A stretch of DNA of 52,995 nucleotides from an uncultured Bacteroidales bacterium (GCA_964386225.1 CAYLTG010000005.1:1512-54506), one strand, 5' to 3'. Positions 25,306 through 41,036 are shown, counted from the first letter of the stretch. Translations and numbers: made by a program. Notes: generated by a model not told the origin, from the letters alone.

Positions 25306-25320
25306 AAGAGCAGTTTTGAC

Positions 25321-25486: not shown

Positions 25487-25494
25487 TATATTTG
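25487..25494 (+). promoter_or_regulatory. -7 box (TATATTTG) upstream of the first beta-propeller gene of the cluster
   Basis: Exact TAnnTTTG match 60 nt upstream of the ATG at 25554, in an AT-rich stretch. The nearest TTTG (25448-25451) is too far away for a canonical -33 element. Confidence 0.35.
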
Positions 25495-25553: not shown

Positions 25554-26765
25554 ATGAAGAATCTATTATCTGTATCCTTACTGATCCTCTTAATGAGTGT
25601 TTCAATGGCCCAGCAGCATGTGCAGTGGCGGGGCGAGCACCGCGATGGCATTTATCCCGGCGAAGGCCTTCTTGAGTCATGGCCCGAAGGGGGGCCCGAA
25701 CTGGTGTGGTACTACGAGGGCATCGGCGATGGCCATTCCTCCGCGACAGTGACCGAAGATGCCATTTATACATCGGGTATGCTCGACGGCATGGGCCATG
25801 TGTTTGCATTCGACCATAAAGGGAGCCTCCTGTGGAAAACGGCATACGGGAAAGAATGGGACGAGAGCTGGAACGGGGTCAGGACAACCCCCATGCTCTA
25901 CGATGGCAAGCTGTTCATCATGAGTTCCTTCGGAAGGCTGGTGCGGCTGGATGCCTCCAACGGCTCCACCGACTGGACCATCGACCTGCACGAGCGCTAT
26001 GACGGTCGCAATATCAAGTGGGGGGTCACCGAGAACCTGTTGCTGGAGGATGGAAAGCTTTTCGTCACGCTGGGCGGGGAACAGAACAATGTGATCGCCC
26101 TGGACCCGGATACGGGCGAAATGATATGGAGCTGTCCCGGGAATGGGGAGATCAGTGCCTACCATTCGCCGGCCGTGTTTGATCACGGCGGAAGGGCCAT
26201 CCTGGTCACCCAGACCCAGAACTCCATCCTGGGGATCGATGCCGCGACAGGCGGGTTGCTATGGTCGTTCGAACACATCAACCAGTGGTCGGTGCAGCCA
26301 AATACCGCCCTCTATCGCGATGGGCTGGTCTACGTGGTCAGCGGTTACGGGAAAGGCGGCGTGCAGCTCAGGCTGTCGGCCGACGGATCCTCCATCACCG
26401 AGGTGTGGCGCGACGAGAACATCGACAACCAGATGGGCGGTGTGGTCCTTCTCGGGGACCGGCTCTATGGTTCAGGCCAGAAGAACAAGAAGCTCTTCTG
26501 TCTCGACTGGAATACGGGCGAGGTATTGTACAGCACCTCCGACGTACAGCGGTCCACCACCATCGCTGCCGGCGGCCTTCTATACTGTTACGACGACCGG
26601 GGGACGGTCGCCCTGGTGAAGCCCGGGGATGGTTCCTTCGAGGTGGTCGGCTCCTTCGAGGTGACCCGGGGTGAGAACCAGCACTGGGCCCACCTGGTGA
26701 TCCACGATGCGCGGCTCTATGTCAGGCATGGCAACGCACTGATGGTCTACGACATCGGGAAATAG
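25554..26765 (+). CDS. Exported PQQ-like/BamB-type beta-propeller repeat protein, paralog 1
   Basis: 403 aa with signal peptide LLSVSLLILLMSVSMAQQ. Family N-terminal motif: QWRGEHRDGIYPGEGLLESWPEGGPELVWYY. Repeated blade pattern (AIYTSGMLDGMGHVFAFDHKGSLLWK, GKLFIMSSFGRLVRLDASNGSTDWT, ...ARLYVRHGNALMVYDI). Confidence 0.8.
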   Translation: MKNLLSVSLLILLMSVSMAQQHVQWRGEHRDGIYPGEGLLESWPEGGPELVWYYEGIGDGHSSATVTEDAIYTSGMLDGMGHVFAFDHKGSLLWKTAYGKEWDESWNGVRTTPMLYDGKLFIMSSFGRLVRLDASNGSTDWTIDLHERYDGRNIKWGVTENLLLEDGKLFVTLGGEQNNVIALDPDTGEMIWSCPGNGEISAYHSPAVFDHGGRAILVTQTQNSILGIDAATGGLLWSFEHINQWSVQPNTALYRDGLVYVVSGYGKGGVQLRLSADGSSITEVWRDENIDNQMGGVVLLGDRLYGSGQKNKKLFCLDWNTGEVLYSTSDVQRSTTIAAGGLLYCYDDRGTVALVKPGDGSFEVVGSFEVTRGENQHWAHLVIHDARLYVRHGNALMVYDIGK

Positions 26766-26784
26766 TGGCCGCAGCTGCGGCCAC
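26765..26784. other. Perfect 20-bp GC-rich palindrome (GTGGCCGCAGCTGCGGCCAC) overlapping the stop codon of paralog 1
   Basis: Read directly; the sequence is exactly self-complementary. No U-run follows, so it is not a canonical intrinsic terminator. An AT-rich stretch with a near -7 box (catatttg) follows before paralog 2. Confidence 0.8.
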
Positions 26785-26872
26785 GGCCCGCGGCGGACCT
26801 GTCGTTGCCATAATATATATTGATTCTTATCGAATTTAGGATCATATTTGCCACAGGTAAATAAATCAAGCT

Positions 26873-28126
26873 ATGAGATATTCCATTCTTGCAATTCTGT
26901 TCCTGCTTGCCTCCCACCTGCTGACAGCACAAGTGGTCAGCGAATGGCGCGGCCATGGCAGGACCGGTGTATATGCTGATGAAACGGGCCTGCTGACCTC
27001 CTGGCCGGAGGGCGGGCCTGAGCTGCTGTGGGTGGCGGAGGGCCTCCCCAACGGGTACTCCTCGGTGGCCGTGGCGCACAACACGGTTTTTTTCACCGGT
27101 CTCGTCGATGAGATGGATGCGCTGGTCGCTGTCGGGATGGGCGGGGCCCTCAAATGGATGACACCCTACGGCAGGGCCTGGGATGACTCCTATAACCCCA
27201 GCCGGTGCACCCCCACGATTGATGGCGACAGGGCTTACGTCTCCAGCGGCCTCGGAGATGTCGCATGCATCAATGCCCACTCGGGAGAGCTGATCTGGTC
27301 CGTGAAGGCGAGCGAGGAATATGAAGGGACATTCGGGAAATGGGGAGTGGCGGAATCGCTCCTGGTCCTGGACGACCGGGTGTTCTTTACCCCGGGCGGC
27401 AGCAAGACCACCATGATCGCCATGGACAAGTTGACCGGGGAAGTGCTCTGGGAATCGGTGAGCCTTGACGACAAGCCCTCCTATACGTCGCCGCTCCTGG
27501 TCCACTGGGCCGATACGGTCACCGTCGTCAATGTCACCGAGAACTACGTCCTCGGCGCCGACCCGATGACAGGGGTGATCCGGTGGACCTTTGATTTCGG
27601 CCAGTTTGCCGGAGGCGAATGGAAGTCAAACAACCAGACCAACACGCCCCTGTTCCGCGACGGCAGGATGTACGTCACAAGTGGCTACGACCACCGGGGC
27701 GTGCAGATAGAGATCTCGCCCAGGAACGACGATGCCTGGTTCGTATGGGTCGACTCCACCCTGGATGTCCATATCGGGGGGGTGGTCAGGATCGGGGAAT
27801 ATATCTACGGTGCATCCTGGAAAGGGAACCGCGACGGCAATTGGGTATGCCTCGACTGGTCCACCGGAAAGGTGATGTACGATCACCACTGGGAGAACAA
27901 AGGTTCCATCATCAGTGCCGACGGCATGCTCTATTGCTATGAGGAGAAAAACGGCAATATGGCACTGGTCAGGCCCACGCCCGATGGCTTTGAGATGGTC
28001 AGCTCGTTCGAGGTCGTTCACGGCAAAGGACCCCACTGGTCGCACCCTGTGATCCGCGACGGCGTCCTCTATGTCCGGCATGGGGAAGCCTTGATGGCCT
28101 ATTCGGTGAAAGCCACTACTGAATAA
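26873..28126 (+). CDS. Exported PQQ-like/BamB-type beta-propeller repeat protein, paralog 2
   Basis: 417 aa with signal ILAILFLLASHLLTAQ. EWRGHGRTGVYADETGLLTSWPEGGPELLWVA. Collinear with paralog 1 down to the C-terminal HWSHPVIRDGVLYVRHGEALMAYSV. Confidence 0.8.
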   Translation: MRYSILAILFLLASHLLTAQVVSEWRGHGRTGVYADETGLLTSWPEGGPELLWVAEGLPNGYSSVAVAHNTVFFTGLVDEMDALVAVGMGGALKWMTPYGRAWDDSYNPSRCTPTIDGDRAYVSSGLGDVACINAHSGELIWSVKASEEYEGTFGKWGVAESLLVLDDRVFFTPGGSKTTMIAMDKLTGEVLWESVSLDDKPSYTSPLLVHWADTVTVVNVTENYVLGADPMTGVIRWTFDFGQFAGGEWKSNNQTNTPLFRDGRMYVTSGYDHRGVQIEISPRNDDAWFVWVDSTLDVHIGGVVRIGEYIYGASWKGNRDGNWVCLDWSTGKVMYDHHWENKGSIISADGMLYCYEEKNGNMALVRPTPDGFEMVSSFEVVHGKGPHWSHPVIRDGVLYVRHGEALMAYSVKATTE

Positions 28127-28136
28127 TCAATTCCAT

Positions 28137-29375
28137 ATGATCACGATGAAAAAACTGCCGGCCCTGTTTGCAATGATCCTGTTCCTTTCCTGCTCGGAGA
28201 GGGTGCCGGAGATCAGCCAGTGGCGGGGCCCCGAAAGAACTGGTTTCTATCCCGACACCGGCCTGCTGGACCGGTGGCCCGAGAATGGCCCCGATCTTAT
28301 TTGGACCTTCGAAGGGCTCGGAAAAGGATATACCGCGGTGGCGGTGACCGCTGACAGGATCTATACCAGCGGGACCTTCGACAGCACCAGCTACCTGTTC
28401 GCACTGGACCATGACGGCCGGCTGGTCTGGAAAAAGCCATATGGCACGGCCTGGATGACCAACTTCCCGGGGGCACGGTCCACGCCGGTCATCTTCGACG
28501 GGCTCGGGTACCTCCTCAGCGGGAGGGGCCTGCTGGTCTGCTTTGACGCGGATGACGGCGAGTTCGTATGGACGAAGGACATCTTCAGGGAATTCGGCGC
28601 CAGGGAAGTGAAGTTCGGGCTCACAGAGAACCTGCTCGTGGATGGCCAAAAACTGTACTGCACCCCGGGTGGGGTCAGGCATAATGTGGTGGCCCTCGAC
28701 CGCCTTACGGGCGAACTGGTCTGGTCCAGCAAGGGCAACATGGAAGTGAGTGCCTACTGCTCCCCTCAGATCATCGACATTTACGGGAAGCGGACCCTGG
28801 TCACCATGTCCGCGCTCTCCATCATCGCCCTCGACCCCGACGACGGCGCCCTGCTGTGGAGCCACGAGATGAACTATCCGCATGGCATCCACGGTAACAT
28901 GCCCATCTATCACGACGGGTATGTCTTCGCCATGAATGGATGGGGTTACGGAAGCGTGATGATGAAAGTGAAAGAGGACGGAACCGGGGTGGAGGAGGTA
29001 TGGCGAAGCCACCTGTTCGACCTGGAGCACGGCGACGCCCTCAAGATAGGGGATAACCTCTACGGGACGGATTATACCTCGCGCCATTTTTCCTGTGTCG
29101 ACTGGTTTACCGGTGAGGTGAAAGATTCCCTGAACAGGTTTGCCCCGGGGACCGTGATATCGGCCGACGGCATGATCTACTGTTATTCCTACCTGGGCGA
29201 CGTGGCCCTGATCAAGCCGAAGCAGGATGGTTTTGAGGTGGTCAGCACCTTCGACCTCCCGGGCCTCAAAAGGGACCATATCGCACACCCCGTGATCCAT
29301 GACCGCCGGCTGTACGTCAGGTACGACAGTACACTGCGGGTTTACGATATCGCCGACAGATCGGTGCTGGAATGA
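28137..29375 (+). CDS. PQQ-like/BamB-type beta-propeller repeat protein, paralog 3 (lipobox-like signal)
   Basis: 412 aa. N-terminus MKKLPALFAMILFLSCSE. QWRGPERTGFYPDTGLLDRWPENGPDLIWTF. C-terminal HIAHPVIHDRRLYVRYDSTLRVYDI. Only 10 nt after paralog 2. Confidence 0.8.
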   Translation: MITMKKLPALFAMILFLSCSERVPEISQWRGPERTGFYPDTGLLDRWPENGPDLIWTFEGLGKGYTAVAVTADRIYTSGTFDSTSYLFALDHDGRLVWKKPYGTAWMTNFPGARSTPVIFDGLGYLLSGRGLLVCFDADDGEFVWTKDIFREFGAREVKFGLTENLLVDGQKLYCTPGGVRHNVVALDRLTGELVWSSKGNMEVSAYCSPQIIDIYGKRTLVTMSALSIIALDPDDGALLWSHEMNYPHGIHGNMPIYHDGYVFAMNGWGYGSVMMKVKEDGTGVEEVWRSHLFDLEHGDALKIGDNLYGTDYTSRHFSCVDWFTGEVKDSLNRFAPGTVISADGMIYCYSYLGDVALIKPKQDGFEVVSTFDLPGLKRDHIAHPVIHDRRLYVRYDSTLRVYDIADRSVLE

Positions 29376-29429
29376 TGCCACCCTGGCTATGGGCGGCGAA
29401 TCCCTTAAAATGAAACTTGAACCTGGCAA

Positions 29430-30836
29430 TTGAAACAACTCGAGAAATACGGTCCCATTTTCCTGGTCCTGTTCGCGGCCATGGCATTCATTTACTGGCA
29501 GGTGCATGACCCTGTGAAAGGGCTTACCATGAGCGTCCCGGGAATGGATAACCGTCCTCCGCGCGACTCGGCAGCCCTTGAGAACGTTGCTATCGGTGAG
29601 AAATTCACCTTCTATGGCGAAGCCGGTGAGACCGGCCCCGGAGGCCAATGGCTGCAGTTCCGGGGGGAGGACAGCGACAATGTCGATGATTCGGGAGTGC
29701 CGCTCATCAGCAGTTGGGAGGCTGCCGAACCCAGGGTGCTCTGGGAGGTGGAACTGGGGGAAGGGCATGCCGCGCCGGTGATCGCCGACGGCAGGGTGTA
29801 TATCCTCGACTACCACGAGATCAAAAAAGCGGACGCACTCCGCTGTTTCTCCCTGGAGACAGGGGAGGAGCTCTGGCGTAGGTGGTACAATGTGCACATC
29901 AAGAGAAACCATGGCATTTCCCGTACCGTGCCGGCCATCAGCGGCGATTTTGTGGTCACCTTAGGCCCGATGGGGCATGTGATGTGCGTCGACCGCTTCA
30001 CTGGCGACCTGGTCTGGACCATGGACCTCGTAAAGAAATACGGCGGCGAGATCCCCTTCTGGTACACGGGCCAATGCCCCCTCATCCGAAACGGTATCGT
30101 CGTCCTGGCACCAGGAGGAGAGGCATTGCTGGTAGGGGTGGAGTGCGCCACCGGCCAGGTGGTGTGGGAGACACCCAACCCGGAGGGCTGGAAAATGTCC
30201 CATTCCTCCGTGATGCCCATGGAATACCGGGGCGTTGCCATGTTTGTGTATGCGGCCATCGGGGGGATCTGCGGTGTGAGGGCAGATGGTCCCGGGGCAG
30301 GGGACGTAGTGTGGAAGTCCAATGTCTTTGCCCCCGCGGTGGTGGCCCCCTCGCCGGTGATCCTCGACGAGGGGAAGGTGTTCATAACAGCAGGGTATGG
30401 GGCAGGATCCATATTGGTGCAACTGACACCCGAAGGCGATGGGTTCGGGGTGGAAGTGCTGCAGCACTACAAGCCGAAGGACGGAATCGCCTCTGAACAG
30501 CAGACCCCCATCCACATGAACGGCTACCTCTATGCCATCCTCCCCAAGGATGCCGGCGCGATGAGGAACCAGTTCGTCTGCTCCTCCGTGGACGACTGCC
30601 AGACATTCATATGGACAAGCGGGAAAACGGAACGTTTCGGTCTTGGTCCTTACCTGTTCGCCGACGGGAAGTTCTTCATCCTGAACGATGATGGAACCCT
30701 CTTCATTGCCAGGGCCGGGGCCGGAGGATTTGAATTGCTCGACAAGCGACAGATCATCCAGGGGCAGGATGCATGGGGCCCCCTGGCCCTCGCCGACGGG
30801 TTGCTGCTGTTGCGGGACTCGAAAAAAATGGTATGA
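29430..30836 (+). CDS. Membrane-anchored PQQ-like beta-propeller repeat protein, paralog 4
   Basis: 468 aa. The TTG start is per the ORF track, and an internal ATG alternative exists. One N-terminal TM segment (GPIFLVLFAAMAFIYW). WLQFRGEDSDNV...ISSWEAAEPRVLWEVELGEGHAAPVIADGRVYILDY. C-terminal AWGPLALADGLLLLRDSKKMV. Confidence 0.7.
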   Translation: MKQLEKYGPIFLVLFAAMAFIYWQVHDPVKGLTMSVPGMDNRPPRDSAALENVAIGEKFTFYGEAGETGPGGQWLQFRGEDSDNVDDSGVPLISSWEAAEPRVLWEVELGEGHAAPVIADGRVYILDYHEIKKADALRCFSLETGEELWRRWYNVHIKRNHGISRTVPAISGDFVVTLGPMGHVMCVDRFTGDLVWTMDLVKKYGGEIPFWYTGQCPLIRNGIVVLAPGGEALLVGVECATGQVVWETPNPEGWKMSHSSVMPMEYRGVAMFVYAAIGGICGVRADGPGAGDVVWKSNVFAPAVVAPSPVILDEGKVFITAGYGAGSILVQLTPEGDGFGVEVLQHYKPKDGIASEQQTPIHMNGYLYAILPKDAGAMRNQFVCSSVDDCQTFIWTSGKTERFGLGPYLFADGKFFILNDDGTLFIARAGAGGFELLDKRQIIQGQDAWGPLALADGLLLLRDSKKMV

Positions 30837-30931
30837 ATGGATATGAGATTAAAAAATTTAATTTAAATAAGTCAACATATATTATTTAAGGTACTACTTT
30901 AATATTACCGGAAGACAATCCTATACGATCC

Positions 30932-31906
30932 ATGAAACAAAAACTGATCATCACACTCGCGATCCTGCTCATCATCCTGGCCGGATTTTTCATGGTCAGG
31001 GATTTCTTCTTCCCGCCCGAAAAAGACATGGGCAATCCATATGAATATGACCTGAGCGACTTCCGGGAGGTGGAGGAGGACCTTTTCTGCTACCGGGAGG
31101 CTGGCCGGGTAGATGTGGATGGCCTGGGCGCGAAAGGCATCGCGGTGGATGACAAGGACCGGCTTTATGTGGCGGGCAATGGAAAGGTGATGATATGCGA
31201 CAGGCAGGGGGAGACGGTCCAGCAATTTGACTTCGCGGGAGTTGCGAACTGCATTGCGGTGGGCGGTCAGGGCGAGATCTACCTGGGGGTGAATGATCAC
31301 GTCGAGGTTTTTGATTTCTCCGGCAACCTGCTGGCCTCCTGGCCCGTCCCCGGGGAAAGGACCCTGATCACAAGCATCGCAGTGGCCGATACGTTGGTAT
31401 ATGTGGCCGATGCCGGCAACAAGTTCGTGCTGCAATACGGCCCGGGGGGTGAGCTGCTGCGCGACATTGGAAAGCGGGACAGGGCCGCAGGCGAGCTGGG
31501 GTTCATCATCCCGAGCCCTTATTTCGACCTCCTCATCGGAAGGGAAGGAGAGCTGTGGGTGGTGAACCCGGGACTGCATGCACTGCAGTCATATAACGCG
31601 CGCGGCGAGGCGGTCTCCTCCTGGAAGAGGACCTCCATGCAACTGGACGGATTCAGCGGCTGCTGCAATCCGTCCCATATCGCCATGCTGGCCAACGGAT
31701 CCTTTGTCACCAGCGAGAAGGGGATCGAACGGGTGAAGGTCCACCTGCCTTCGGGCGATTTCAGTTGCGTGGTGGCCGGACCGGAACAATTCGAAACGGG
31801 TACGGTCGGGCTCGACCTCGCCGTCGATTCGGAGGACCGGATCTACGTGCTGGATCCGAGGAAAGGGGAGATAAGGTCATTTGATCCGCTTGAAATGAAT
31901 GAGTAA
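30932..31906 (+). CDS. Membrane-anchored NHL-repeat six-bladed beta-propeller protein
   Basis: 324 aa with TM anchor LIITLAILLIILAGFFMV. NHL-like blades: GIAVDDKDRLYVAGNGKVMICDRQGE, IAVGGQGEIYLGVNDHVEVFDFSGN, IAVADTLVYVADAGNKFVLQYGPGGE, DLLIGREGELWVVNPGLHALQSYNARGE, LAVDSEDRIYVLDPRKGEIRSFD. Contains a vicinal Cys pair in GFSGCCNPSH. Confidence 0.75.
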   Translation: MKQKLIITLAILLIILAGFFMVRDFFFPPEKDMGNPYEYDLSDFREVEEDLFCYREAGRVDVDGLGAKGIAVDDKDRLYVAGNGKVMICDRQGETVQQFDFAGVANCIAVGGQGEIYLGVNDHVEVFDFSGNLLASWPVPGERTLITSIAVADTLVYVADAGNKFVLQYGPGGELLRDIGKRDRAAGELGFIIPSPYFDLLIGREGELWVVNPGLHALQSYNARGEAVSSWKRTSMQLDGFSGCCNPSHIAMLANGSFVTSEKGIERVKVHLPSGDFSCVVAGPEQFETGTVGLDLAVDSEDRIYVLDPRKGEIRSFDPLEMNE

Positions 31907-31916
31907 TTGAAAGACT

Positions 31917-32132
31917 ATGAACGACCGAAGAGCATTTATCAAGAAGGTGGGCCGCGGGGCGGTGGCCCTCGGCCTGGCCGGTATCAGCGGCTACCTTCTT
32001 TTGCGGGAGAGCAGCGGCGAGGATTGTTCCTTTGATCTCGCATGCGGCGGCTGCCGGAAGAACGCCAGCTGCACCCATCCGCAGGCGAAGGATTTCAGGA
32101 GTTCGGGATCGGAACGCGAAACAAACAGGTGA
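31917..32132 (+). CDS. Tat-signal miniprotein (71 aa) with a CX5CX2CX5C cluster
   Basis: MNDRRAFIKKVGRGAVALGLAGISGYLLL contains a twin-arginine motif (RRxFIK) followed by an h-region. It is followed by CSFDLACGGCRKNASC. It starts 10 nt after the NHL gene, and its TGA is 2 nt before the next ATG. Confidence 0.5.
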   Translation: MNDRRAFIKKVGRGAVALGLAGISGYLLLRESSGEDCSFDLACGGCRKNASCTHPQAKDFRSSGSERETNR

Positions 32133-32134
32133 CC

Positions 32135-32716
32135 ATGGCAAAAAATAACGACCAACGGAAGATCGACAGACGGCGCTTCATCAACGATGGGTTCCGGTAT
32201 GCCCTTGCACTTGGGGTAGGCGGGTTGGGCGCCACGCTGGCGGCTAGGTCGCCGGGTGACGAACTGGTCTGGCAGCTGGACCCGGCCAAATGCGTCCAGT
32301 GCGGCAGGTGTGCCACGCACTGCGTGCTCACCCCCTCAGCCGTGAAATGCATGCACGTCTATGACATGTGCGGCTATTGCGACCTGTGCAGCGGCTATTT
32401 CAAGGTCAACACCAAGGACCTGAATACCGGAGCCGAGAATCAGCTCTGTCCCACAAGTGCCATCGAGCGAAGGTTCATCGAAGAGCCGTATTTTGAATAC
32501 CACATCAACGAGGACCTGTGCTTCGGCTGCGGGAAATGTGTCGAAGGGTGCGGTGCCTTCGGCAACGGATCGCTGCAACTGCAGGTGAACCACGACCTCT
32601 GCGTCAATTGCAACGAATGTTCCATCGCCCGCGATTGCCCGGCCGATGCCTACAGCCGGATCCCGGCGTCGAAGGCATACCAGTTCAAGGGGTTTAACAA
32701 GGAAGAACTTCTGTAG
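32135..32716 (+). CDS. Tat-exported poly-[4Fe-4S] ferredoxin (NapG/NosG-like)
   Basis: The start is taken at MAKNNDQRKIDRRRFINDGFRYALALGVGGLGATLAA (Tat motif). Cys motifs: CVQCGRCATHC, CGYCDLC...CP, CFGCGKCVEGC, CVNCNECSIARDCP. The track's 32042 start would overlap the upstream miniprotein gene. Confidence 0.75.
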   Translation: MAKNNDQRKIDRRRFINDGFRYALALGVGGLGATLAARSPGDELVWQLDPAKCVQCGRCATHCVLTPSAVKCMHVYDMCGYCDLCSGYFKVNTKDLNTGAENQLCPTSAIERRFIEEPYFEYHINEDLCFGCGKCVEGCGAFGNGSLQLQVNHDLCVNCNECSIARDCPADAYSRIPASKAYQFKGFNKEELL

Positions 32717-32719
32717 CGC

Positions 32720-34075
32720 ATGGGACAAAAACTGAAATATGGCCTCCTGCTCCTCACCCTGATGCTGATCACACTGGCGGGGCCTGCACAGCAGCGATTC
32801 CCCAAGCCGGAGTTCGAGTCGGGGCACGTCCAGCCGCCCACCCTTACCCCTGAGCCCCGGGCAGGCTGGCTGGAGATGTTGGATGTGGCCGTCCTGATCG
32901 CTGCCCTGTCGCTCATCACCTGGCTCATCATCAAGAAAAGGTCCCGCAAGGGTGTGTTCTGGGTGTCGATATTCTCCCTCGTCTATTTTGGCTTTTACCG
33001 CGAAGGGTGTGTCTGTTCCGTCGGTGCCATTCAGAATATCACGCTCGGGCTCTTTCACCCCGGGTACCAGGTCCCCTACACGGTGATCGCTTTTTTTGCC
33101 ATCCCCCTCATTTATACCCTCTTCTATGGGCGGACCTTTTGTGCCGGGGTATGCCCCCTCGGGGCCCTTCAGGACCTTTTCGTGATCAAGCCATACAGCC
33201 TCAGGTCATGGGTCAATGCCCTCCTGGGGATGTTCCCCTACATCTACCTCGGACTGGCGGTCCTGTATGCCGCCACGGCCACGGATTTCATCATCTGCAG
33301 GTACGATCCTTTCGTGGGGATATTCCGCTTCAATGCCACATTCTTCATGTTCGCCCTGGGCGGACTGTTGCTCCTGACCAGCATCTTCATCGCCCGGCCC
33401 TATTGCCGGTTCTTCTGTCCCTACGGGGTGCTGTTGAACCTGTTCAGCCGGCTTTCGGCCCGGCACATGACCATTACCCCCACCGAGTGCATCCAGTGCC
33501 GGCTTTGCGAGAATTCGTGCCCCTTCGATGCCATCGAGAAACCGTCCTCTGTCCGGGTGGTCGACCACAAGAGAATGGCCGTCAGGCGGCTCATGGTCCT
33601 GAGCTTCATCATACCCCTGTTGATGCTGGCCGGGGGCTGGGCCGGCTCCCGCTACCATGAGGGACTGGCCAGTGTCAACCCCAAGGTGCGGCTGGCCGCC
33701 CATCTGCTCGAAGGGGAGGAGGGCCAGCCCCTGGAAGTGCAGGAGGACATCACCGCTTTCAGGTCGTCGGGAACGCCGGCGGCGGAGCTCTATGCCGAGG
33801 CGGCCTCCATCGTCCGGGATTTTTATGCCGGCGGTTGGATACTTGGTGCTTTCATCGGGTTGGTATTCGGCCTCACCCTCGCCGGCCTGACACGTTTCCG
33901 CAGGCAAACAGATTATGTGCCCGACAAGGGGGCTTGCCTGAGCTGTGCCCGCTGCATGGACTATTGCCCGGTAAGGGCCGGGAAAGAGGATGAGTTCAGG
34001 GAGTGGGCGGTGCCGGGCAGGATGGGTGGCCCTGATCAACTGGAAAGCCACGGAAAGGACAATTTGATAACTTAA
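32720..34075 (+). CDS. Polytopic membrane Fe-S protein (NapH/NosH/MauN-like, CxxCP motifs plus ferredoxin-type clusters)
   Basis: 451 aa with multiple TM helices. NapH-type motifs: GRTFCAGVCPLGALQD and RPYCRFFCPYGVLLNL. 4Fe-4S motif CIQCRLCENSCPFDAIE. Two more TM helices are followed by a second motif, CLSCARCMDYCPV. Starts 3 nt after the ferredoxin gene. Confidence 0.75.
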   Translation: MGQKLKYGLLLLTLMLITLAGPAQQRFPKPEFESGHVQPPTLTPEPRAGWLEMLDVAVLIAALSLITWLIIKKRSRKGVFWVSIFSLVYFGFYREGCVCSVGAIQNITLGLFHPGYQVPYTVIAFFAIPLIYTLFYGRTFCAGVCPLGALQDLFVIKPYSLRSWVNALLGMFPYIYLGLAVLYAATATDFIICRYDPFVGIFRFNATFFMFALGGLLLLTSIFIARPYCRFFCPYGVLLNLFSRLSARHMTITPTECIQCRLCENSCPFDAIEKPSSVRVVDHKRMAVRRLMVLSFIIPLLMLAGGWAGSRYHEGLASVNPKVRLAAHLLEGEEGQPLEVQEDITAFRSSGTPAAELYAEAASIVRDFYAGGWILGAFIGLVFGLTLAGLTRFRRQTDYVPDKGACLSCARCMDYCPVRAGKEDEFREWAVPGRMGGPDQLESHGKDNLIT

Positions 34076-34093
34076 CTCCGGATTGAACTGTAA

Positions 34094-35956: not shown

Positions 35957-36000
35957 ACCATGACTAGAGAAAACGACAGCACCATAAGTCAAGACCCTGA

Positions 36001-38346
36001 ATGAACCCGGAAATCATTGAAATAGTAGACCGTCTGATCGAACAGAAGGGTGGCCGGCCCGGCGATGTGATCCCGCTCCTGCAGGGCATTCAGAATGCCT
36101 TCAACTACCTGCCTGAGGAGGCCCTCCTGCGTGTATGCGAAACTACGGAGATCACCCCCGCCCAGGTCTACGGCATTTCCACCTTTTACACCCAGTTCCG
36201 TCACCGCCCGGTGGGGCAGCACCTCATCAAAGTGTGCGTGGGTACGGCCTGCCACGTGAAAGGTGCCATGCAGGTGCTGGATGCCTTCCGCCGGGAACTC
36301 GGCCTCCGGGAAGGGGAGGACACCGACGAAGCGGGGCTTTTCACCGTTGACAAGGTGGCCTGCCTGGGGTGCTGCACCATTGCCCCTGTGGTCCAGATCG
36401 ACGAGGTGACCTACGGTCATGTGACCCCCGGGAAGGTGCCGGAGGTGATCAGCGACTTCCTCCATGAAGGAAGGTCGAAAGGGGCCATACGCCGCGAAAA
36501 GGGTGAAGGCGATCAGGAGAGCCAGGGCGAGATCCGCATCGGGTTGGGGTCGTGCTGCATCGCCAGTGGCAGCGAAGATGTCAAACGGGAGCTGGAGGAG
36601 ATCCTCGACAGGCAACACATCCATGTGCACGTCAAGCAGGTGGGATGTGTCGGGATCTGCAACCAGGTGCCACTGATGGAGATCCACAAGCCGGGCGAAA
36701 CGCCCTCATTCTATACCAGGATAAAGCCGGAGCAGGTGAAGGGGATCATCACCTCTCATTTCAAATCGGCCGGTGCCTTCGACAGGCTGAGGAACAGGGT
36801 CTATGATCTCTTCGAGCAGATCGTCGTGGGCGACGCCGTCACCGGGCTCGAACGTTATCCCGCAGACCAGCGCGATACCCCTGTGGCCGAGTTCCTGGAG
36901 GAGCAGGTCAACATCGCCACCGAATACAGGGGCGAGATAAAACCCTCCGACCTGGAGGAATACAAAAAACTCGGTGGTTTCGAGGCCCTCAGGTCGGCAC
37001 TGGGCCTGGAGCCCGAGGCCGTGGTGGACATCCTGAAGGAATCGGGGCTCCGCGGCCGCGGTGGGGCAGGTTTCCCCACGGGCGTGAAATGGGAGCTTGT
37101 CCATAAGGCCGTGGCCGAGAGGAAATATGTGATCTGCAATGGCGATGAAGGCGATCCCGGTGCGTTCATGGACCGCATGCTGCTCGAATCCTACCCCTTC
37201 CGGATCATCGAGGGGGTCACCATCGCCGGGTATGCCGTCGGCGCCGCCGAAGGCATCTTCTACATCCGGGCCGAATACCCACTGGCCGTGAAAAGGATCC
37301 GTGAGGCCATCGAGATAATGGAACAGCAGCACATGCTGGGCAAGAACATCCTCAACAGCGGCTTCGACTTCACCGTGCGGATCTTCGAAGGGGCCGGGGC
37401 GTTCGTGTGCGGGGAGGAAACGGCCCTCATCGCCTCCATCGAGGGGAAGCGCGGCATGCCCAAGGTACGGCCGCCCTACCCGGCGGAGAAAGGGTTGTGG
37501 GAATACCCCACGCTCATCAACAATACCGAGACGTTTTCGCTCGTCACCTGGATACTCCGGAACGGTGCCGCTGCATTCAACACGATCGGATCGGCCGACA
37601 GCAAGGGGACCAAAGTGTTCGCCCTGGCGGGAAAGATAAACCGGGGCGGGCTCATCGAGGTGCCCATGGGCATGTCCATCCGGTCCATCGTGGAGAAGAT
37701 CGGCGGCGGGGTGCAACAGGGCAGGAAATTCAAGGCCGTCCAGATCGGGGGGCCTTCAGGGGGGTGCATCCCGGCCTCCATGGCCGATATCCCCATCGAC
37801 TTCGAGTCCCTCAGGGACGCCGGGGCCATGATGGGCTCGGGCGGGCTCATCGTCCTGGATGATACGGATTGCATGGTCGACATCGCCCGGTACTTTCTCT
37901 CGTTCACTCAGGACCAGTCCTGCGGCAAATGCACGTTCTGCCGCGTGGGCACCCGCAAGATGCTGGAGATCCTGGATGGCATCACCTCCGGAAAGGGCAC
38001 GAAAGCCGACCTGGACGCACTCGACCGGCTGGCACGCTGGACGGCCAGGGGCAGCCTTTGCGGGCTCGGGAAAACGGCTCCTAACCCGGTACTGTCGACA
38101 CTGGAACACTTCCGCGACGAATACGAGGCCCACATTGAAGGACGGTGCCCCACGGGGAAATGCAAGGACCTGGTGACCTACACCATCCTCGACACCTGCA
38201 ACGGCTGCACCAAATGCGCCCAGCGGTGCCCAGCCGATGCCATTGCCATGCGACCTTATGAAGTGCATGTGATAGATACGGACAAGTGCATCAAATGCGA
38301 TATATGCAGGCAGGTGTGCCCTGTGGATGCGGTAACGACGATATGA
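36001..38346 (+). CDS. NuoE-HndB-NuoF fusion: NAD(P)H-binding FMN/Fe-S flavoprotein with C-terminal 2x[4Fe-4S] ferredoxin domain (HydB/HndC-like)
   Basis: NuoE-type 2Fe-2S: KVCVGTACHVKG...ACLGCCTIAP. Second thioredoxin-like module: IRIGLGSCCIASGSEDV...VGCVGICNQVP. NuoF motifs: GLRGRGGAGFPTGVKWE, ICNGDEGDPGAFMDR, FVCGEETALIASIEGKRGMPKVRPPYPA, QSCGKCTFCRVGT. C-terminal CNGCTKCAQRCPADAI and CIKCDICRQVCPVDAV. Confidence 0.85.
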   Translation: MNPEIIEIVDRLIEQKGGRPGDVIPLLQGIQNAFNYLPEEALLRVCETTEITPAQVYGISTFYTQFRHRPVGQHLIKVCVGTACHVKGAMQVLDAFRRELGLREGEDTDEAGLFTVDKVACLGCCTIAPVVQIDEVTYGHVTPGKVPEVISDFLHEGRSKGAIRREKGEGDQESQGEIRIGLGSCCIASGSEDVKRELEEILDRQHIHVHVKQVGCVGICNQVPLMEIHKPGETPSFYTRIKPEQVKGIITSHFKSAGAFDRLRNRVYDLFEQIVVGDAVTGLERYPADQRDTPVAEFLEEQVNIATEYRGEIKPSDLEEYKKLGGFEALRSALGLEPEAVVDILKESGLRGRGGAGFPTGVKWELVHKAVAERKYVICNGDEGDPGAFMDRMLLESYPFRIIEGVTIAGYAVGAAEGIFYIRAEYPLAVKRIREAIEIMEQQHMLGKNILNSGFDFTVRIFEGAGAFVCGEETALIASIEGKRGMPKVRPPYPAEKGLWEYPTLINNTETFSLVTWILRNGAAAFNTIGSADSKGTKVFALAGKINRGGLIEVPMGMSIRSIVEKIGGGVQQGRKFKAVQIGGPSGGCIPASMADIPIDFESLRDAGAMMGSGGLIVLDDTDCMVDIARYFLSFTQDQSCGKCTFCRVGTRKMLEILDGITSGKGTKADLDALDRLARWTARGSLCGLGKTAPNPVLSTLEHFRDEYEAHIEGRCPTGKCKDLVTYTILDTCNGCTKCAQRCPADAIAMRPYEVHVIDTDKCIKCDICRQVCPVDAVTTI

Positions 38347-38347
38347 T

Positions 38348-39919
38348 ATGATCACGCTGAAGATCGACGACAGGACGGTAAAGGTGCCGGAAAACACGAC
38401 GGTGATGCAGGCCGCGGCCCTGGCCGGCATCGACATCCCCTCCATGTGCTTCATGGAAGGCTATGGAAACCATCCATCCTGCATGGTGTGCCTTGTGAAG
38501 GACAGGTTCAGCGGACGCCTCTTCGCCTCCTGCGCCATGCCCGTGGCAGAGGGGATGGACCTGGTGGCCGGCGACGAGGAGGTCAGGGAGGCCAGGAAAG
38601 AGGCGCTGGAGCTCCTCCTCAGCGACCATGTAGGCGATTGCGAAGCGCCGTGCCGGAATGGATGCCCGGCATTTATGGACATCCCACGCATGAACCGTCT
38701 GATCGTGGAAGGACGGTTCCGGGAGGCCCTTGTCAATGTGAAACAGGAGATCGCCCTCCCCCTGATCCTCGGCTATGTGTGCGAGGCACCCTGCGAGAAG
38801 GTGTGCCGCCGGGAACCCATCGACGGGGCTGTCGCCATATGCCAGCTGAAGCGGTTCGTGGCAGCGGAAGACCTCGGCGGCGACCATCGGTGGTTCCCCG
38901 GGAAAAAAGAAATGAACGGAAAGCAGGTGACCATCGTAGGGGCAGGCCCCGCCGGGCTGGCCGCCGCATTCTACCTCACCTGGCAGGGCTGCAGGTGCAC
39001 CGTCATCGACAGGAACAGCCGCCCGGGCGGTTCCCTGCTCCGCCTCGATGAAACGGTCCTGCCGGAGGAAGCCCTCTCCCGGGAAGTGAAATACCTGGTC
39101 GACTACGGGGTGGAGTTCATCCTGGACCAGGAAGTCGACAGGGAGTACCTCGAAAGAACTGTATTGCCGTCAGCCGATGCCGTCATCTTCACCACCGGCG
39201 CCCAGGGTCCCCACAGGACCGGCAAGCTGGGCGTGCTGTTCGACAGCCGGGGCATCCTGGTCGACAAGGATACCGGGGCCTGCGACAGACCGGGGTTCTT
39301 TGCCGCCGGAAGTGCGGTGAGGAGGCAGCACATGGCCATCCGCACGGTGGCCCAGGGAAAGGCGGTGGCGCTGTCGGTGCTGGATCATCTTCTTGGAAAG
39401 GAGCACAGGCCCTTTCACAAGATGTTCAACTCGCGCTTCGGGAAACTCCATCCGGAAGAACAAGACGAATATCTGAAGGAGGCGTCCCGGGCCGGGAGGA
39501 CGACACCCCGGAACGGGAACCTGGAAGGATTTGATGAAGATGAGGCCCGGGCGGAGGCGGCCCGGTGCATGCATTGCGATTGCCGCAAGCCCTCCACCTG
39601 CAAACTGCGCCTCTTGTCAGAAGAGTATGGCGCCGACAGGAAAAAATACCTGGCGGGCGAAAGAAAGCAGGTCAGTAAACAATTTACGCACAAAAGCATT
39701 GTATATGAAAGGGAGAAATGTATCAAGTGCGGCCTGTGCGTGGAGATAGCCGCAGGGGAAAAGGAACTGACGGGCCTCACCTTCATCGGGCGCGGCTTCG
39801 ACGTGAGGGTGGGGATCCCCTTTACGCGCGAACTGGATCAGGCGCTGGCACGCACTGCACTGAAATGCGCGGAGGCATGCCCCACCGCCGCAATATCGGT
39901 AAAGCATGACAAGAATTGA
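38348..39919 (+). CDS. 2Fe-2S ferredoxin / GltD-like (glutamate synthase small-subunit-type) FAD-NAD(P)H oxidoreductase with extra C-terminal Cys-cluster domain
   Basis: N-terminal NuoG-like 2Fe-2S segment: ITLKIDDRTVKVPENTTVMQAAALAGIDIPSMCF...HPSCMVCLV. GltD-like segment: HVGDCEAPCRNGCPAFMDIPRMNRLIVEGRFREAL...LGYVCEAPCEKVCRR. Dinucleotide fold VTIVGAGPAGLAAAFYL. C-terminal CMHCDCRKPSTCKL and CIKCGLCVEI. The ATG is 1 nt after the NuoEF stop. Confidence 0.75.
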   Translation: MITLKIDDRTVKVPENTTVMQAAALAGIDIPSMCFMEGYGNHPSCMVCLVKDRFSGRLFASCAMPVAEGMDLVAGDEEVREARKEALELLLSDHVGDCEAPCRNGCPAFMDIPRMNRLIVEGRFREALVNVKQEIALPLILGYVCEAPCEKVCRREPIDGAVAICQLKRFVAAEDLGGDHRWFPGKKEMNGKQVTIVGAGPAGLAAAFYLTWQGCRCTVIDRNSRPGGSLLRLDETVLPEEALSREVKYLVDYGVEFILDQEVDREYLERTVLPSADAVIFTTGAQGPHRTGKLGVLFDSRGILVDKDTGACDRPGFFAAGSAVRRQHMAIRTVAQGKAVALSVLDHLLGKEHRPFHKMFNSRFGKLHPEEQDEYLKEASRAGRTTPRNGNLEGFDEDEARAEAARCMHCDCRKPSTCKLRLLSEEYGADRKKYLAGERKQVSKQFTHKSIVYEREKCIKCGLCVEIAAGEKELTGLTFIGRGFDVRVGIPFTRELDQALARTALKCAEACPTAAISVKHDKN

Positions 39920-41036
39920 CATACATATCCGGTTTCTGGCCCTCGTCCTGCTGGTGTCCGCAGGATGCCGGGGAGGGATGGCACAGACCGGGACCAGCTG
40001 GCCCTCTTTCAGGGGGAACCCGGCACTTGACGGGGTGGCCCCCGTAAGCCTGCCCGGGGAATGGAAATTGCTTTGGTCTTTCAAAACGGAAGATGCGGTC
40101 AGGTCGTCTCCGGTAATACATGACGGGATGGTCTACTGCGGTTCGGACGATGGGCATGTTTACGGCATCACCGCGGCCGGAGCGATGAAATGGAAATTCA
40201 ATGCCGGGACGTCCGTGGAAGCGCCGCCCCTCTACCTCGACGGAAGGGTTTACGTGGGTTCGCTCGAAGGGGTGCTCTACGCGCTGGATGCCTACACCGG
40301 ATTGCAGGTATGGGAATACCATACCGATGGTCAGGTGTCCGGCTCCTCCGGGTGGGTGACGGCAGCGGATGGGAAAACGAAATTCATCATCACCGGCAGC
40401 TATGACTTCTTCCTGCATGCCGTGGATGCGGCCACAGGCGCGCCGGCGTGGAAATATGAAGCCGATAACTACATCAACGGCGCCCCGGCCACCGATGGCA
40501 GGGTGGCCGTTTTCGGGGGATGCGACGGGTTCCTCCACAAGGTGGCGGTGACCACGGGCAAGGCCGAGGACAAGATCGACATTGGCACCTACATTGCCGC
40601 CTCCGCAGCCATCGACGGGCAGAAAGCCTATTTTGGCAATTACGACGGGGTGTTCTTTTGTGCCGACCTGTCAGCGAAGAAGGTGCTCTGGCAGAAAGAG
40701 GGCCTCGGCGAGATCATCAGTTCGCCGGCCGTGAGCGGGGACCGCGTGGTGATCGGGACCAGGGACCGGAACGTCTATTGCTTCAGCGCCTCCAGCGGGG
40801 AGGAGCTTTGGAAATTCACGACCCTCGGCAAAGTGGAGGCCTCCCCGGTGATCGCCGGGGATGTGGTGGTGGTCCCCTCGGGAGATGGCAGGATATACAT
40901 GCTTGGCCTGCAGGACGGGGAAAAGCGCTGGTCGTACGATGTGGGTAGTGCCGTTTACAGCTCGCCGGCCGTGGTGAAGGACCTGATCGTCGTCGGTGCA
41001 CAGGATGGCCGCATCTATGGCTTCGGGCCACGATGA
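39906..41036 (+). CDS. PQQ-like/BamB-type beta-propeller repeat protein, paralog 6 (lipobox-like signal)
   Basis: 376 aa. N-terminus FLALVLLVSAGCRGG. WPSFRGNPALDGVAPVSLPGEWKLLWSF. Regular blades: SSPVIHDGMVYCGSDDGHVYGI, APPLYLDGRVYVGSLEGVLYALDAYTG, SSPAVSGDRVVIGTRDRNVYCF, SSPAVVKDLIVVGAQDGRIYGF. The ATG overlaps the end of the GltD-like gene by 14 nt. Confidence 0.8.
   Translation: MTRIDIHIRFLALVLLVSAGCRGGMAQTGTSWPSFRGNPALDGVAPVSLPGEWKLLWSFKTEDAVRSSPVIHDGMVYCGSDDGHVYGITAAGAMKWKFNAGTSVEAPPLYLDGRVYVGSLEGVLYALDAYTGLQVWEYHTDGQVSGSSGWVTAADGKTKFIITGSYDFFLHAVDAATGAPAWKYEADNYINGAPATDGRVAVFGGCDGFLHKVAVTTGKAEDKIDIGTYIAASAAIDGQKAYFGNYDGVFFCADLSAKKVLWQKEGLGEIISSPAVSGDRVVIGTRDRNVYCFSASSGEELWKFTTLGKVEASPVIAGDVVVVPSGDGRIYMLGLQDGEKRWSYDVGSAVYSSPAVVKDLIVVGAQDGRIYGFGPR

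Follow-up and report, generated by a model that had tools for sequence, protein, structure and literature searches.

A conserved Bacteroidales gene cluster that probably encodes an envelope-spanning electron-transfer system with a Bfu-type core and exported beta-propellers

Introduction

What joint function could unite a cytoplasmic flavoenzyme pair, iron–sulfur (Fe-S) proteins in and beyond the membrane, and a set of exported beta-propellers, when their genes follow one another on a single strand? Such a cluster lies in a stretch of 52,995 nucleotides (nt), hereafter the window, from an uncultured Bacteroidales bacterium (GCA_964386225.1, CAYLTG010000005.1:1512-54506). A first-pass annotation of the window had suggested a redox module that spans the membrane, in which electrons would travel from NAD(P)H or ferredoxin by way of a membrane Fe-S protein and a twin-arginine translocation (Tat) ferredoxin to the propellers. 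Here, the conserved gene order, the gene content, and natural gene fusions found in related genomes support such a module, with NADPH as an unlikely participant. We propose that the 15 genes at 25554-46403 probably encode one envelope-spanning electron-transfer system, which would pass electrons outward to an extracytoplasmic acceptor. We place high confidence in the architecture, moderate confidence in the outward direction of electron flow, and low confidence in the nature of the acceptor. Protein families, topology signals, the conserved gene set, and the domain fusions were read directly from the sequences and their comparison across genomes.

Results

Fifteen co-directional genes form one conserved unit

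The cluster opens with 12 consecutive, co-directional + strand genes at 25554-41036, as established from the list of open reading frames (ORFs) and their translations. The thirteen genes that the first-pass annotation had placed in this interval were a miscount, the thirteenth being the gene at 41065, while every intergenic distance that it gave was reproduced on recomputation. In order, the 12 genes are separated by 107, 10, 54, 95, 10, 2, 3, 18, 44, 1, and -14 nt, the last value reflecting a 14-nt overlap between the start of P6 and the stop of the BfuA-like gene, and 28 nt separates P6 from the glycosyltransferase (GT4) gene at 41065. Three more + strand genes follow P6, encoding GT4, an ATP-binding cassette (ABC) ATPase, and an FtsX permease, with gaps of 28, 51, and 5 nt, and the resulting 15-gene unit at 25554-46403 is followed by a 241-nt gap 3' of the permease gene. 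No terminator-like site was found within any intergenic gap of the cluster. The 15 products, with lengths in amino acids (aa), are:

25554..26765, + strand: P1, Sec-exported PQQ_2-type beta-propeller, 403 aa (Pfam PQQ_2, 1e-24)
26873..28126, + strand: P2, Sec-exported PQQ_2-type propeller, 417 aa, paralog of P1 and P3 (Pfam, pairwise identity)
28137..29375, + strand: P3, lipoprotein PQQ_2-type propeller, 412 aa, lipobox LFLSC
29430..30836, + strand: P4, transmembrane-anchored 8-bladed propeller, 468 aa, TTG start (AlphaFold2 model, homologs)
30932..31906, + strand: NHL, transmembrane-anchored 6-bladed NHL propeller, 324 aa (Pfam NHL, AlphaFold2 model)
31917..32132, + strand: mini, Tat-signal miniprotein, 71 aa, with invariant C37-x5-C43-x2-C46-x5-C52
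32135..32716, + strand: TatFd, Tat-signal polyferredoxin, 193 aa, with 16 conserved Cys in four [4Fe-4S]-type motifs (Pfam Fer4 families)
32720..34075, + strand: NapH-like integral membrane Fe-S protein, 451 aa, Fer4_5 (CX3CP) plus Fer4, with a signal peptide and about seven transmembrane helices
34094..35956, + strand: P5 (P5tm), propeller behind three transmembrane helices, 620 aa (PQQ_2, 7e-30)
36001..38346, + strand: BfuC-BfuB fusion (BfuCB), 781 aa (Pfam 2Fe-2S_thioredx, Complex1_51K, NADH_4Fe-4S, Fer4; NfnB alignment)
38348..39919, + strand: BfuA-like protein, 523 aa (Pfam Fer2_4, Fer4_20, Pyr_redox_2; partial NfnA alignment)
39906..41036, + strand: P6, lipoprotein propeller, 376 aa, lipobox VSAGC (Beta-prop_ACSF4, 1e-68; PQQ_2, 3e-40)
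41065..42351, + strand: GT4 glycosyltransferase, 428 aa, a frequent yet optional member (Pfam)
42403..43104, + strand: ABC ATPase of the LolD/MacB/FtsE type, 233 aa (NCBIfam LolD, 237 bits vs a cutoff of 308)
43110..46403, + strand: duplicated FtsX-type permease, 1097 aa (Pfam FtsX twice), with two large predicted periplasmic domains

Scanning the NapH-like protein against one genome per species retrieved 339 relatives, and the locus figures that follow refer to the best 80 of them, with gene counts taken from a tblastn map and limited to loci with enough flank. These loci belong to Labilibaculum, Marinifilum, Ancylomarina, Prolixibacteraceae, Lentimicrobiaceae, Gaoshiqia, Sunxiuqinia, Tangfeifania, Mangrovibacterium, and many metagenome-assembled genomes (MAGs). 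The conservation of gene order, whose absence in relatives the first-pass annotation had named as a refutation, is extensive: 71 of the 80 Bacteroidales loci are colinear in the order P1-P2-(P3)-P4-NHL-mini-TatFd-NapH-P5-BfuCB-BfuA-P6-(GT)-ABC-FtsX. A P1/P2/P3-type gene occurs in 60 of 66 loci, with a copy number of 0-4 per locus, and the P5 gene always follows the NapH-like gene. The single genes were present as follows:

TatFd: 75/76 loci
P5: 74/74 loci
BfuCB: 67/68 loci
BfuA: 60/63 loci
P6: 56/60 loci
P4: 65/71 loci
NHL: 66/72 loci

More distant relatives keep the same genes in another order. Among 50%-identity representatives, 398 NapH-like clusters were found at E < 1e-30, with about 10 of the best 150 reaching ~1000 aa, and in metagenomes more than 590 stretches contained relatives. 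A metagenome scan seeded with fusions of the NapH-like protein to P5 gave 80 loci spanning 35-74% GC, and many of these contigs carry the permuted order P6-GT-ABC-FtsX-P4-NHL-(mini)-TatFd-NapH-P5-BfuCB-BfuA-P(1-3 type). The co-occurrence of propeller, NapGH-like, and NuoEF/GltD-like genes, for which the first-pass annotation had called for a neighbourhood survey, is therefore retained even where the order is permuted. That the content is kept despite rearrangement argues strongly for a single functional unit of 12-15 genes, and on the same ground the ABC-FtsX pair belongs to it. Given this recurrence in relatives and in permuted contigs, the arrangement is far beyond chance. One record of a NapH-P5 fusion is labelled Planctomycetota, which ties part of the permuted group to a second phylum; the cluster is thus shared by at least two phyla and not restricted to Bacteroidota.

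Natural fusions join the modules

Four kinds of natural fusion tie the modules of the cluster together physically. Mini, TatFd, and the NapH-like protein are joined in a single chain in a Bacteroidetes MAG (P0426, on the contig of locus L062), which has the mini part, including its Tat signal and Cys4 motif, at its start. TatFd is fused to the NapH-like protein in P0412 and likewise in P0426, L062, and L095, while the NapH-like protein is fused to P5 in about 25 protein clusters of ~1000 aa that combine Fer4_5 with PQQ_2 (P0249, P0296, P0304, and ~20 more). In the fourth kind, a protein from a Phycisphaerae MAG (P0439, GCA_028706835.1) consists of a NapH-like protein fused to NuoE, and its NuoE part is 48% identical to that of the window.

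All of these fusions fit a single predicted topology, in which TatFd and mini would lie outside, the NapH-like protein would have its N-terminus out and its C-terminus and Fe-S motifs in, and NuoE would lie inside. Under the same topology, the N-terminus of P5 would be inside and its propeller outside. At the Phycisphaerae locus (L162, 2625-8176), the NapH-like-NuoE fusion is directly followed by a NuoF-like gene and then by a full-length GltD-like gene with a complete Pyr_redox_2 domain; these three genes may by themselves encode an Nfn-type Bfu enzyme anchored in the membrane.

A Bfu-family core with a shortened BfuA in the cytoplasm

BfuCB combines a NuoE-like [2Fe-2S] domain, the N-terminal [2Fe-2S] domain of BfuB, a flavin mononucleotide (FMN)/NADH site, a [4Fe-4S] domain, and a C-terminal ferredoxin-type domain for two [4Fe-4S] clusters. 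Its residues 177-778 align with residues 2-581 of NfnB (9bov_B) in the Caldicellulosiruptor NfnABC structure, thus over the whole length of BfuB, with an E-value of 1e-205. The BfuC part matches PF01257 (1.5e-51, residues 10-152) and is fused to BfuB, whose own domains match PF01512 (5e-45), PF10589 (9e-32), and PF14697/PF00037, with a weak SLBB match (22.4 bits vs 27). An N-terminal [2Fe-2S] and C-terminal [4Fe-4S] clusters (the extra clusters B2-B5) separate bifurcating BfuB from non-bifurcating NuoF (PMC9304861). In BfuCB, the N-terminal [2Fe-2S] motif of the BfuB part and the two CxxCxxCxxxCP motifs at the C-terminal end line up with their NfnB counterparts, and cluster binding is predicted accordingly.

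The adjacent BfuA-like protein keeps the [2Fe-2S] domain, the GltD-type domain for two [4Fe-4S] clusters, the flavin adenine dinucleotide (FAD)-type Rossmann half, and NuoG-type Cys motifs. It matches the BfuA subunits NfnA and StnC (9bov_A, 8oh5_C, 9n5u_A) only over residues 4-288 and 450-671 of those subunits. Residues 289-449 of NfnA 9bov_A, which form the NADP(H) subdomain, have no counterpart in it, the C-terminal domain resembling formate dehydrogenase (FDH) is also absent, and its Pyr_redox_2 match is restricted to positions 140-287 of the 291-position profile. An Nfn/Stn transhydrogenase is ruled out by the absence of the NADP(H) subdomain, and NADPH is for the same reason an unlikely donor or acceptor. 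Without a recognisable third-substrate site, the BfuA-like protein looks like a connector, and it would need an external partner because it has neither the NADP(H) subdomain nor the FDH-like domain. The first-pass annotation had described this pair as a NuoE-NuoF fusion with a GltD-like flavoprotein; the domains are indeed present, but a generic NuoEF/GltD identity gives way to a core of the Bfu family (HydABC/NfnABC-type). The pair belongs to the Bfu family and is not an Nfn/Stn enzyme, with bifurcation or confurcation itself as a prediction from its sequence.

A NapH-like protein with cysteines on both predicted faces is accompanied by two proteins with Tat signals

The NapH-like protein carries two conserved CX3CP motifs (CAGVCP and CRFFCP) and two ferredoxin-type CxxCxxCxxxCP motifs (CIQCRLCENSCP and CLSCARCMDYCP), all predicted to lie on the cytoplasmic side according to the positive-inside rule, hydropathy, and the fusions. 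On the same grounds, its periplasmic loops are predicted to hold the GCxC (C96, C98) and ICRYDPF (C193) motifs, which are invariant in the subfamily. The NapGH-like label of the first-pass annotation holds at the level of the superfamily, but membership of the NapH and NapG families themselves does not: the protein scores 45.9 bits vs the TIGR02163 cutoff of 213.05 and 43.1 vs the NF007013 cutoff of 234, and it shares 24% identity with E. coli NapH over 150 residues that span both CX3CP motifs. More broadly, the Pfam and NCBIfam searches confirmed the families that had been assigned at first, with the NuoEF/GltD and NapGH labels in need of refinement.

Both exported Fe-S candidates bear the Tat signals and conserved Cys patterns that had been noted at first reading. 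In mini, the twin-arginine motif DRRAFIK lies within DRRAFIKKVGRGAVALGLAG, and in TatFd the motif DRRRFIN lies within DRRRFINDGFRYALALGVGG; in each case the Arg pair precedes a hydrophobic stretch and is invariant in the orthologs, so that export is predicted for both. The Cys4 pattern of mini often precedes an LPxA-like sequence in relatives, and TatFd is preceded by an ORF with the Arg pair and Cys4 pattern in 55 of the 74 genome loci and in 40 of the 66 metagenome loci. TatFd itself has no close relative in the Protein Data Bank (PDB).

Alongside the Tat polyferredoxin, no molybdopterin, copper, or haem protein that could act as a NapAB partner is encoded in the cluster or in its relatives. 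Canonical NapGH is thus ruled out by score, by the extra features of the membrane protein, and by the absence of NapAB. The absence of molybdopterin, copper, and haem subunits had been recorded before and is borne out by the lack of any such Pfam or NCBIfam match in the cluster; a haem-based route is also rejected, as the 15 proteins do not contain a single CxxCH motif, and no canonical terminal reductase is encoded within the cluster.

The propellers belong to known folds with conserved motifs of their own

Six proteins match PQQ_2 in Pfam with E-values from 1e-18 to 3e-40. P1-P3 share 35-44% mutual identity (P1 vs P2/P3, 40-44%), and P4, P5, and P6 are each 21-30% identical to P1-P3. All six carry the export features ascribed to them in the first-pass annotation, namely Sec signals in P1 and P2, lipoboxes in P3 and P6, and transmembrane anchors in P4 (one helix) and P5 (three), as judged by sequence reading and a hydropathy scan, and by the same means the NHL propeller proved to be membrane-anchored as described. 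Orthology to BamB, which would have assigned the propellers to a characterised non-redox family, is rejected, since P1, P4, P5, and P6 score 68.6, 28.1, 65.3, and 149.5 bits vs an equivalog cutoff of 285.2 (TIGR03300/NF008351). A PQQ-dependent dehydrogenase identity is equally rejected, with 19.6-73.9 bits vs 480 and 20-33 vs 833 (TIGR03075/TIGR03074). By these profile scores, the propellers belong to PQQ_2 and NHL at the level of fold and family only and are neither BamB proteins nor recognisable quinoproteins.

Two of the propellers display strongly conserved sites. Homologs of P4 measure 473-479 aa and cover 100% of the query, and its AlphaFold2 model is eight-bladed, with a predicted local distance difference test score (pLDDT) of 86. 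Its PDB fold matches, BamB and tetrathionate hydrolase about equally, have TM-scores of 0.55-0.60 at 15-17% identity. When the P4 family profile was compared with the PDB, the best match was tetrathionate hydrolase (1.5e-5), followed by quinoprotein ethanol dehydrogenase (3e-4), while BamB did not appear at 1e-3. Over 111 sequences, the motifs KRxH161GxSRTxP, QC216P, MxH258xS, QxTP, and WxP are conserved just before strand A of successive blades, a position in the model that suggests that these residues line a central pocket. The NHL protein scores 31 bits vs the Pfam cutoff of 20 (PF01436), and its AlphaFold2 model is a six-bladed NHL fold (pLDDT 89) with the NHL domains of Thin, TRIM2, and PknD as top fold matches (TM-score 0.68-0.81). 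Over 124 sequences from both locus groups, GFxGC244C245NP, ADAG, PSxxFD, and TxEKG are invariant in it. From general chemistry, the vicinal C244-C245 pair suggests a redox-active disulfide or a site that binds soft metal or sulfur.

Glycosyltransferase and ABC transporter genes

The GT4 gene is found in many loci of both gene-order groups and is absent from the Labilibaculum, Marinifilum, and Ancylomarina loci. The ABC ATPase and permease genes, by comparison, are adjacent to each other and stand with the cluster in both gene orders; the permease matches the ADOP-type duplicated permease only weakly. Set against type VII ABC systems (MacB/LolCDE/FtsEX-like), the ATPase comes nearest to LolD at a score under its cutoff, and the permease shows two FtsX domains with two long stretches outside its transmembrane helices.

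A proposed outward electron path and the points that weigh against it

In the mechanism that we favour, the cytoplasmic Bfu core, composed of BfuCB and the truncated BfuA, would take electrons from NADH and reduced ferredoxin. With the truncated BfuA as a go-between, the Fe-S chain of the core would deliver them to the NapH-like protein at its cytoplasmic [4Fe-4S]/CX3CP face, and the NapH-like protein would carry them across the membrane, either directly or through the quinone pool, to the periplasmic side. There, the Cys triad of the NapH-like protein, mini, and the four-cluster ferredoxin TatFd would form a relay to a membrane-anchored propeller assembly (P5 bound to the NapH-like protein, P4, NHL, the P1-3 type, and P6), at which an external acceptor would be reduced. 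The MacB/Lol-like ABC-FtsX transporter, with or without GT4, would assemble, load, or position the propellers, and the outcome would be an electron sink for fermentative anaerobes. Outward flow is favoured because the chain consists entirely of low-potential Fe-S and flavin centres and nothing is present that could oxidise a donor at about -400 mV. The direction of flow, the complexes between proteins that are not fused, and the role of the ABC transporter are what we infer from the gene set and its topology.

As to the acceptor, the NHL Cys-Cys pair, the CxC of the NapH-like protein, and the weak tetrathionate hydrolase affinity of P4 lead us to suggest, with low confidence, an S-S or metal-type substrate. 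A bolder version of the outward path, which we put forward tentatively as possible though not likely, is a cytochrome-free extracytoplasmic terminal reductase of a class not recognised before: a confurcating Bfu core would feed a two-faced NapH-type redox protein, then mini and TatFd, and finally a catalytic site in a propeller, assembled by the MacB-like ABC transporter and acting on S-S, polysulfide, or metal substrates. The central pocket of P4 and the vicinal-cysteine site of NHL would be the candidate catalytic sites. Two Labilibaculum species whose genomes contain the cluster (L007 and L010), L. filiforme and L. manganireducens, reduce Fe(III) in the course of glucose fermentation by unknown genes (PMC5760507), which offers a circumstantial lead to the function of the cluster.

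Several observations weigh against an outward-directed single system. To our knowledge, a cross-membrane electron route is established for no member of the NapH family. Among 62 orthologs of the BfuA-like protein, the GD motif for FAD binding is not maintained. No cofactor or catalytic site was recognised in any propeller, and fold searches returned generic BamB, tetrathionate-hydrolase, and TRIM-NHL folds only. In addition, the modules are separable. The Bfu genes are absent from four loci of 40-44% GC (L106, L107, L108, and L111), and the P1-P4/NHL block does not stand next to the core in five or six Bacteroidales loci; this block is a separable module because some loci begin at mini. The Phycisphaerae module with the NapH-like-NuoE fusion has no propellers within the ~14 kb seen, and its GltD-like protein is full-length; since no propellers lie nearby, a NapH-Bfu module can exist without the periplasmic end. 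Lastly, unrelated genes interrupt the cluster in some genomes.

Loci L002, L021, L022, L024, and L052 begin at mini, with unrelated or housekeeping genes upstream (seen in L022 and L024); their P1-P4/NHL block is absent or located elsewhere, which points to a system of two modules. In L106-L108 and L111, P5 is directly followed by P6-GT-ABC-FtsX, and L107 and L108 have an extra PQQ_2 gene after FtsX on the opposite strand. An alternative terminal enzyme in the loci that lack the Bfu genes or the P1-P4/NHL block was sought and rejected, the genes there being only of the housekeeping or polysaccharide-degradation kind. Insertions occur in L070 (15442-19166), L002 (15615-17289), L068 and L080 (about 15400-16700), L066 and L073, L063 (7814-9132), L003, L055, and L015. 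By reading of their translations, the inserted ORFs include a large AAA-ATPase-like, a MutS-like, a GDSL-type hydrolase-like, and, between NHL and mini in L063, a radical-SAM-like one; as these and the others are of unrelated kinds, they were rejected as hidden subunits.

Other explanations of the same gene set

Two alternatives keep the complex or most of its parts and change the course of the electrons. The Bfu core and the NapH-like protein may form an NADH/ferredoxin:menaquinone oxidoreductase, with the propellers and periplasmic Fe-S proteins fed by quinol, as is assumed for NapGH and NosGH, and thus linked to the core through the quinone pool only; we regard this as unlikely overall, though a real alternative for this one step. 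NapH is named a quinol dehydrogenase subunit (NCBIfam NF007013), quinones are among the predicted third substrates of Bfu enzymes, and both the NapH-NuoE, NuoF, and GltD module without nearby propellers and the clusters without Bfu genes would fit such a loose linkage. However, the protein of the window is a distant NapH relative with extra periplasmic Cys, an extra transmembrane hairpin, and no recognisable quinone site, and in most loci the Bfu genes stand between two propeller genes and overlap one of them, which argues for a single assembly. Alternatively, the complex could run in reverse, so that the propellers would oxidise a low-potential periplasmic donor and the Bfu core would bifurcate the electrons onto NAD+ and ferredoxin, a reading that we find quite improbable. 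P4 has a weak affinity to quinoprotein dehydrogenases (sorbose dehydrogenase, 2e-7; ethanol dehydrogenase, 3e-4), yet PQQ-type chemistry is far too positive for the role of a donor at about -400 mV, and the PQQ dehydrogenase models score 20-74 bits vs cutoffs of at least 480. Bfu enzymes are reversible and their third substrate is often the donor, but bifurcation onto NAD+ and ferredoxin requires, on thermodynamic grounds, a donor at about -400 mV (PMC9304861), and the cluster lacks any hydrogenase, formate dehydrogenase, or CO dehydrogenase and any further catalytic site of low potential.

The remaining two alternatives deny the cluster a respiratory purpose or even a common one. It could encode an envelope biogenesis or export machine of the BamB/Lol/MacB kind, in which the Fe-S chain would supply maintenance reductant as in NosR-NosZ or DsbD. 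In favour of this very doubtful explanation, P6 is the most BamB-like propeller (149.5 bits), the ABC ATPase is nearest to LolD, MacB, and FtsE, the NHL Cys-Cys pair and the CxC of the NapH-like protein are conserved, and two propellers are lipoproteins. Nonetheless, a confurcating Bfu core with a Tat ferredoxin and a Tat miniprotein would be a costly source of maintenance reductant, all propellers fall far below the BamB cutoffs, and the conserved polar residues of P4 at the pocket-facing entry of strand A suggest ligand binding or catalysis. The mere adjacency of independent operons (an Nfn-like enzyme, a NapGH-like pair, propeller paralogs, and an ABC exporter) is hardly credible: promoters could reside in the 107-nt gap with a palindrome after P1 or in the AT-rich 95-nt gap before NHL, modules are separable in a few genomes, and unrelated insertions occur in some loci, but the content is kept across large divergence despite a permuted order, four kinds of fusion join the parts, the BfuA-like protein lacks a substrate domain of its own, and its gene shares 14 nt with that of P6. 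On balance, the outward-directed, envelope-spanning system is the reading that we retain.

Flanking genes and candidate regulatory sites

The cluster starts at P1, because the genes upstream of it in the window have no counterpart in the related loci. These neighbours occupy 16469-25389 on the - strand and comprise two cargo proteins of the type IX secretion system (T9SS; Por_Secre_tail) at 16469-18865 and 24532-25389, a SusC-like TonB-dependent receptor at 22231-24495, and a 1103-aa sortilin/BNR protein at 18972-22283. As no homolog of the T9SS cargo, the TonB-dependent receptor, or the BNR/sortilin protein occurs in any related locus, they were rejected as members of the system; this set of neighbours is consistent with an origin in Bacteroidota. 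Downstream, an acyl-CoA ligase-like gene (46645-48606, +) and an amidophosphoribosyltransferase-like gene (48664-50067, -; 203 bits vs the PurF equivalog cutoff of 350) both lie outside the conserved unit.

One candidate promoter element was found by pattern match in the 164-nt intergenic region before the cluster:

25487..25494, + strand: candidate -7 promoter box TATATTTG, fitting TAnnTTTG, ~60 nt upstream of P1

The pattern TAnnTTTG is the -7 consensus of the sigma-AB promoters of Bacteroidetes, and a scan for sigma-70 promoters is uninformative in Bacteroidota. Directly after the P1 stop, a perfect GC-rich palindrome (GGCCGCAGCTGCGGCC, 26766-26785) opens the 107-nt gap between P1 and P2; it has no T-run and could act as an attenuator or form a hairpin that affects mRNA stability. 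The 95-nt gap between P4 and NHL is strongly AT-rich and could hold an internal promoter. Scans of the window for Rfam families and tRNAs gave no match. Long ORFs of ~600-680 aa that oppose clear genes (for example 28116-29912 on the - strand, 41284-43071 on the - strand, and 20145-22175 on the + strand) show no sign of coding and are typical of DNA with ~59% GC.

A further sequence motif, TATTTAGA[ACT]C, occurs in 25 + strand copies in 1.46 Mb of related loci, all of them upstream of the first propeller gene, and is absent from the window. It lies 86-136 nt upstream of that gene, often in a partial palindrome ATTTAGAACCTTATTAAAT, and is probably the site of a regulator. The loci that carry it are L007, L008, L010, L011, L013, L016, L018, L025, L031, L033, L034, L039-L041, L065-L069, L072, L073, and L077-L080. 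At the end of one permuted cluster (L125, 19491-21962), an 823-aa ORF with two PQQ_2 stretches appears to encode a tandem double propeller.

Discussion

If the cluster works as proposed, several lines of research would be affected. Bfu enzymes are soluble, or predicted to sit on Mbh- or Nuo-type arms, and a Bfu core wired to a NapH-type protein would constitute a new outlet for NADH and ferredoxin. The mechanism and purpose of NapH/NosR-type proteins have long been open, and the Cys residues on both predicted faces, together with fusions on both sides, make this subfamily favourable for structural work. Moreover, the cluster is common in sediment Bacteroidales, so that an electron sink of this kind would bear on carbon turnover in anoxic sediments and on the unexplained reduction of metals and sulfur by fermentative organisms. 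Should the more tentative idea of a terminal reductase hold, the sink would serve fermentative members of both Bacteroidota and Planctomycetota and could explain fermentative Fe(III), Mn(IV), and sulfur reduction.

The database names of these proteins are generic (PQQ-binding-like beta-propeller repeat protein, BamB family, 4Fe-4S binding protein, hypothetical). If our reading is correct, thousands of proteins annotated as BamB or PQQ-binding-like are components of a redox system and not factors for the assembly of outer-membrane proteins. No description of this gene combination was found in the literature searched by combinations of its components, a coverage that left out most subscription journals.

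The closest relatives of the cytoplasmic core are the Bfu enzymes NfnABC and StnABC (PDB 9bov, 9n5u, 8oh5; PMC9304861, PMC11829005, PMC7483475), with which it aligns over the whole length of BfuB, with matching Cys motifs and a NuoE-like domain in common. In contrast to these enzymes, BfuC and BfuB are fused here, BfuA lacks the NADP(H) and FDH-like parts, and the genes stand among those of membrane and exported proteins. The predicted membrane-bound Bfu types are linked to Mbh or Nuo, whereas the link here is to a NapH-like protein, which in one relative is fused to NuoE.

On the membrane side, the cluster resembles NapGH, NosGH, NosR, and MauMN in combining a four-cluster Tat ferredoxin with an integral membrane protein that has two CX3CP and two ferredoxin-type motifs. 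Unlike NapH, however, the NapH-like protein has an N-terminal signal peptide, a conserved periplasmic RFPxPEF segment, and a transmembrane hairpin inserted between its two CxxCxxCxxxCP motifs, and it carries the periplasmic residues C96, C98, and C193, which E. coli NapH does not have. Unlike NapGH, NosGH, and MauMN, it has no NapAB, NosZ, or methylamine dehydrogenase partner, and a Bfu core stands instead of, or beside, quinol. The nos clusters of clade II N2O reducers follow a similar overall logic, with the NosZ propeller, NosGH, the NosDFY ABC transporter, and the lipoprotein NosL. They differ in that the present cluster has no CuA/CuZ signature, no cupredoxin domain, and no NosD, NosL, or NosY family match, in that its ABC permease is of the FtsX/MacB type, and in that its propellers are of the PQQ_2 and NHL families and are Sec-exported, membrane-anchored, or lipidated.

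For the propellers themselves, tetrathionate hydrolase (PDB 6l8a, 7cqy) and BamB provide examples of cofactor-free, eight-bladed propellers of the PQQ_2 type; P4 is likewise eight-bladed, but has the motifs KRxHGxSRTxP, QCP, and MxHxS of its own. NHL-repeat proteins, namely UetH and UetI of Ca. Tenderia and Gmet_0556, are found in gene clusters for extracellular electron transfer (bioRxiv 10.1101/2022.05.06.490989). Those clusters depend on multihaem cytochromes, whereas no CxxCH motif occurs here and the NHL protein has the invariant GCCNP. As proposed, the cluster would perform electron delivery of a known type, in which Fe-S proteins with Bfu input pass electrons across the membrane, with a substantial chance that the terminal propeller chemistry is of a new type.

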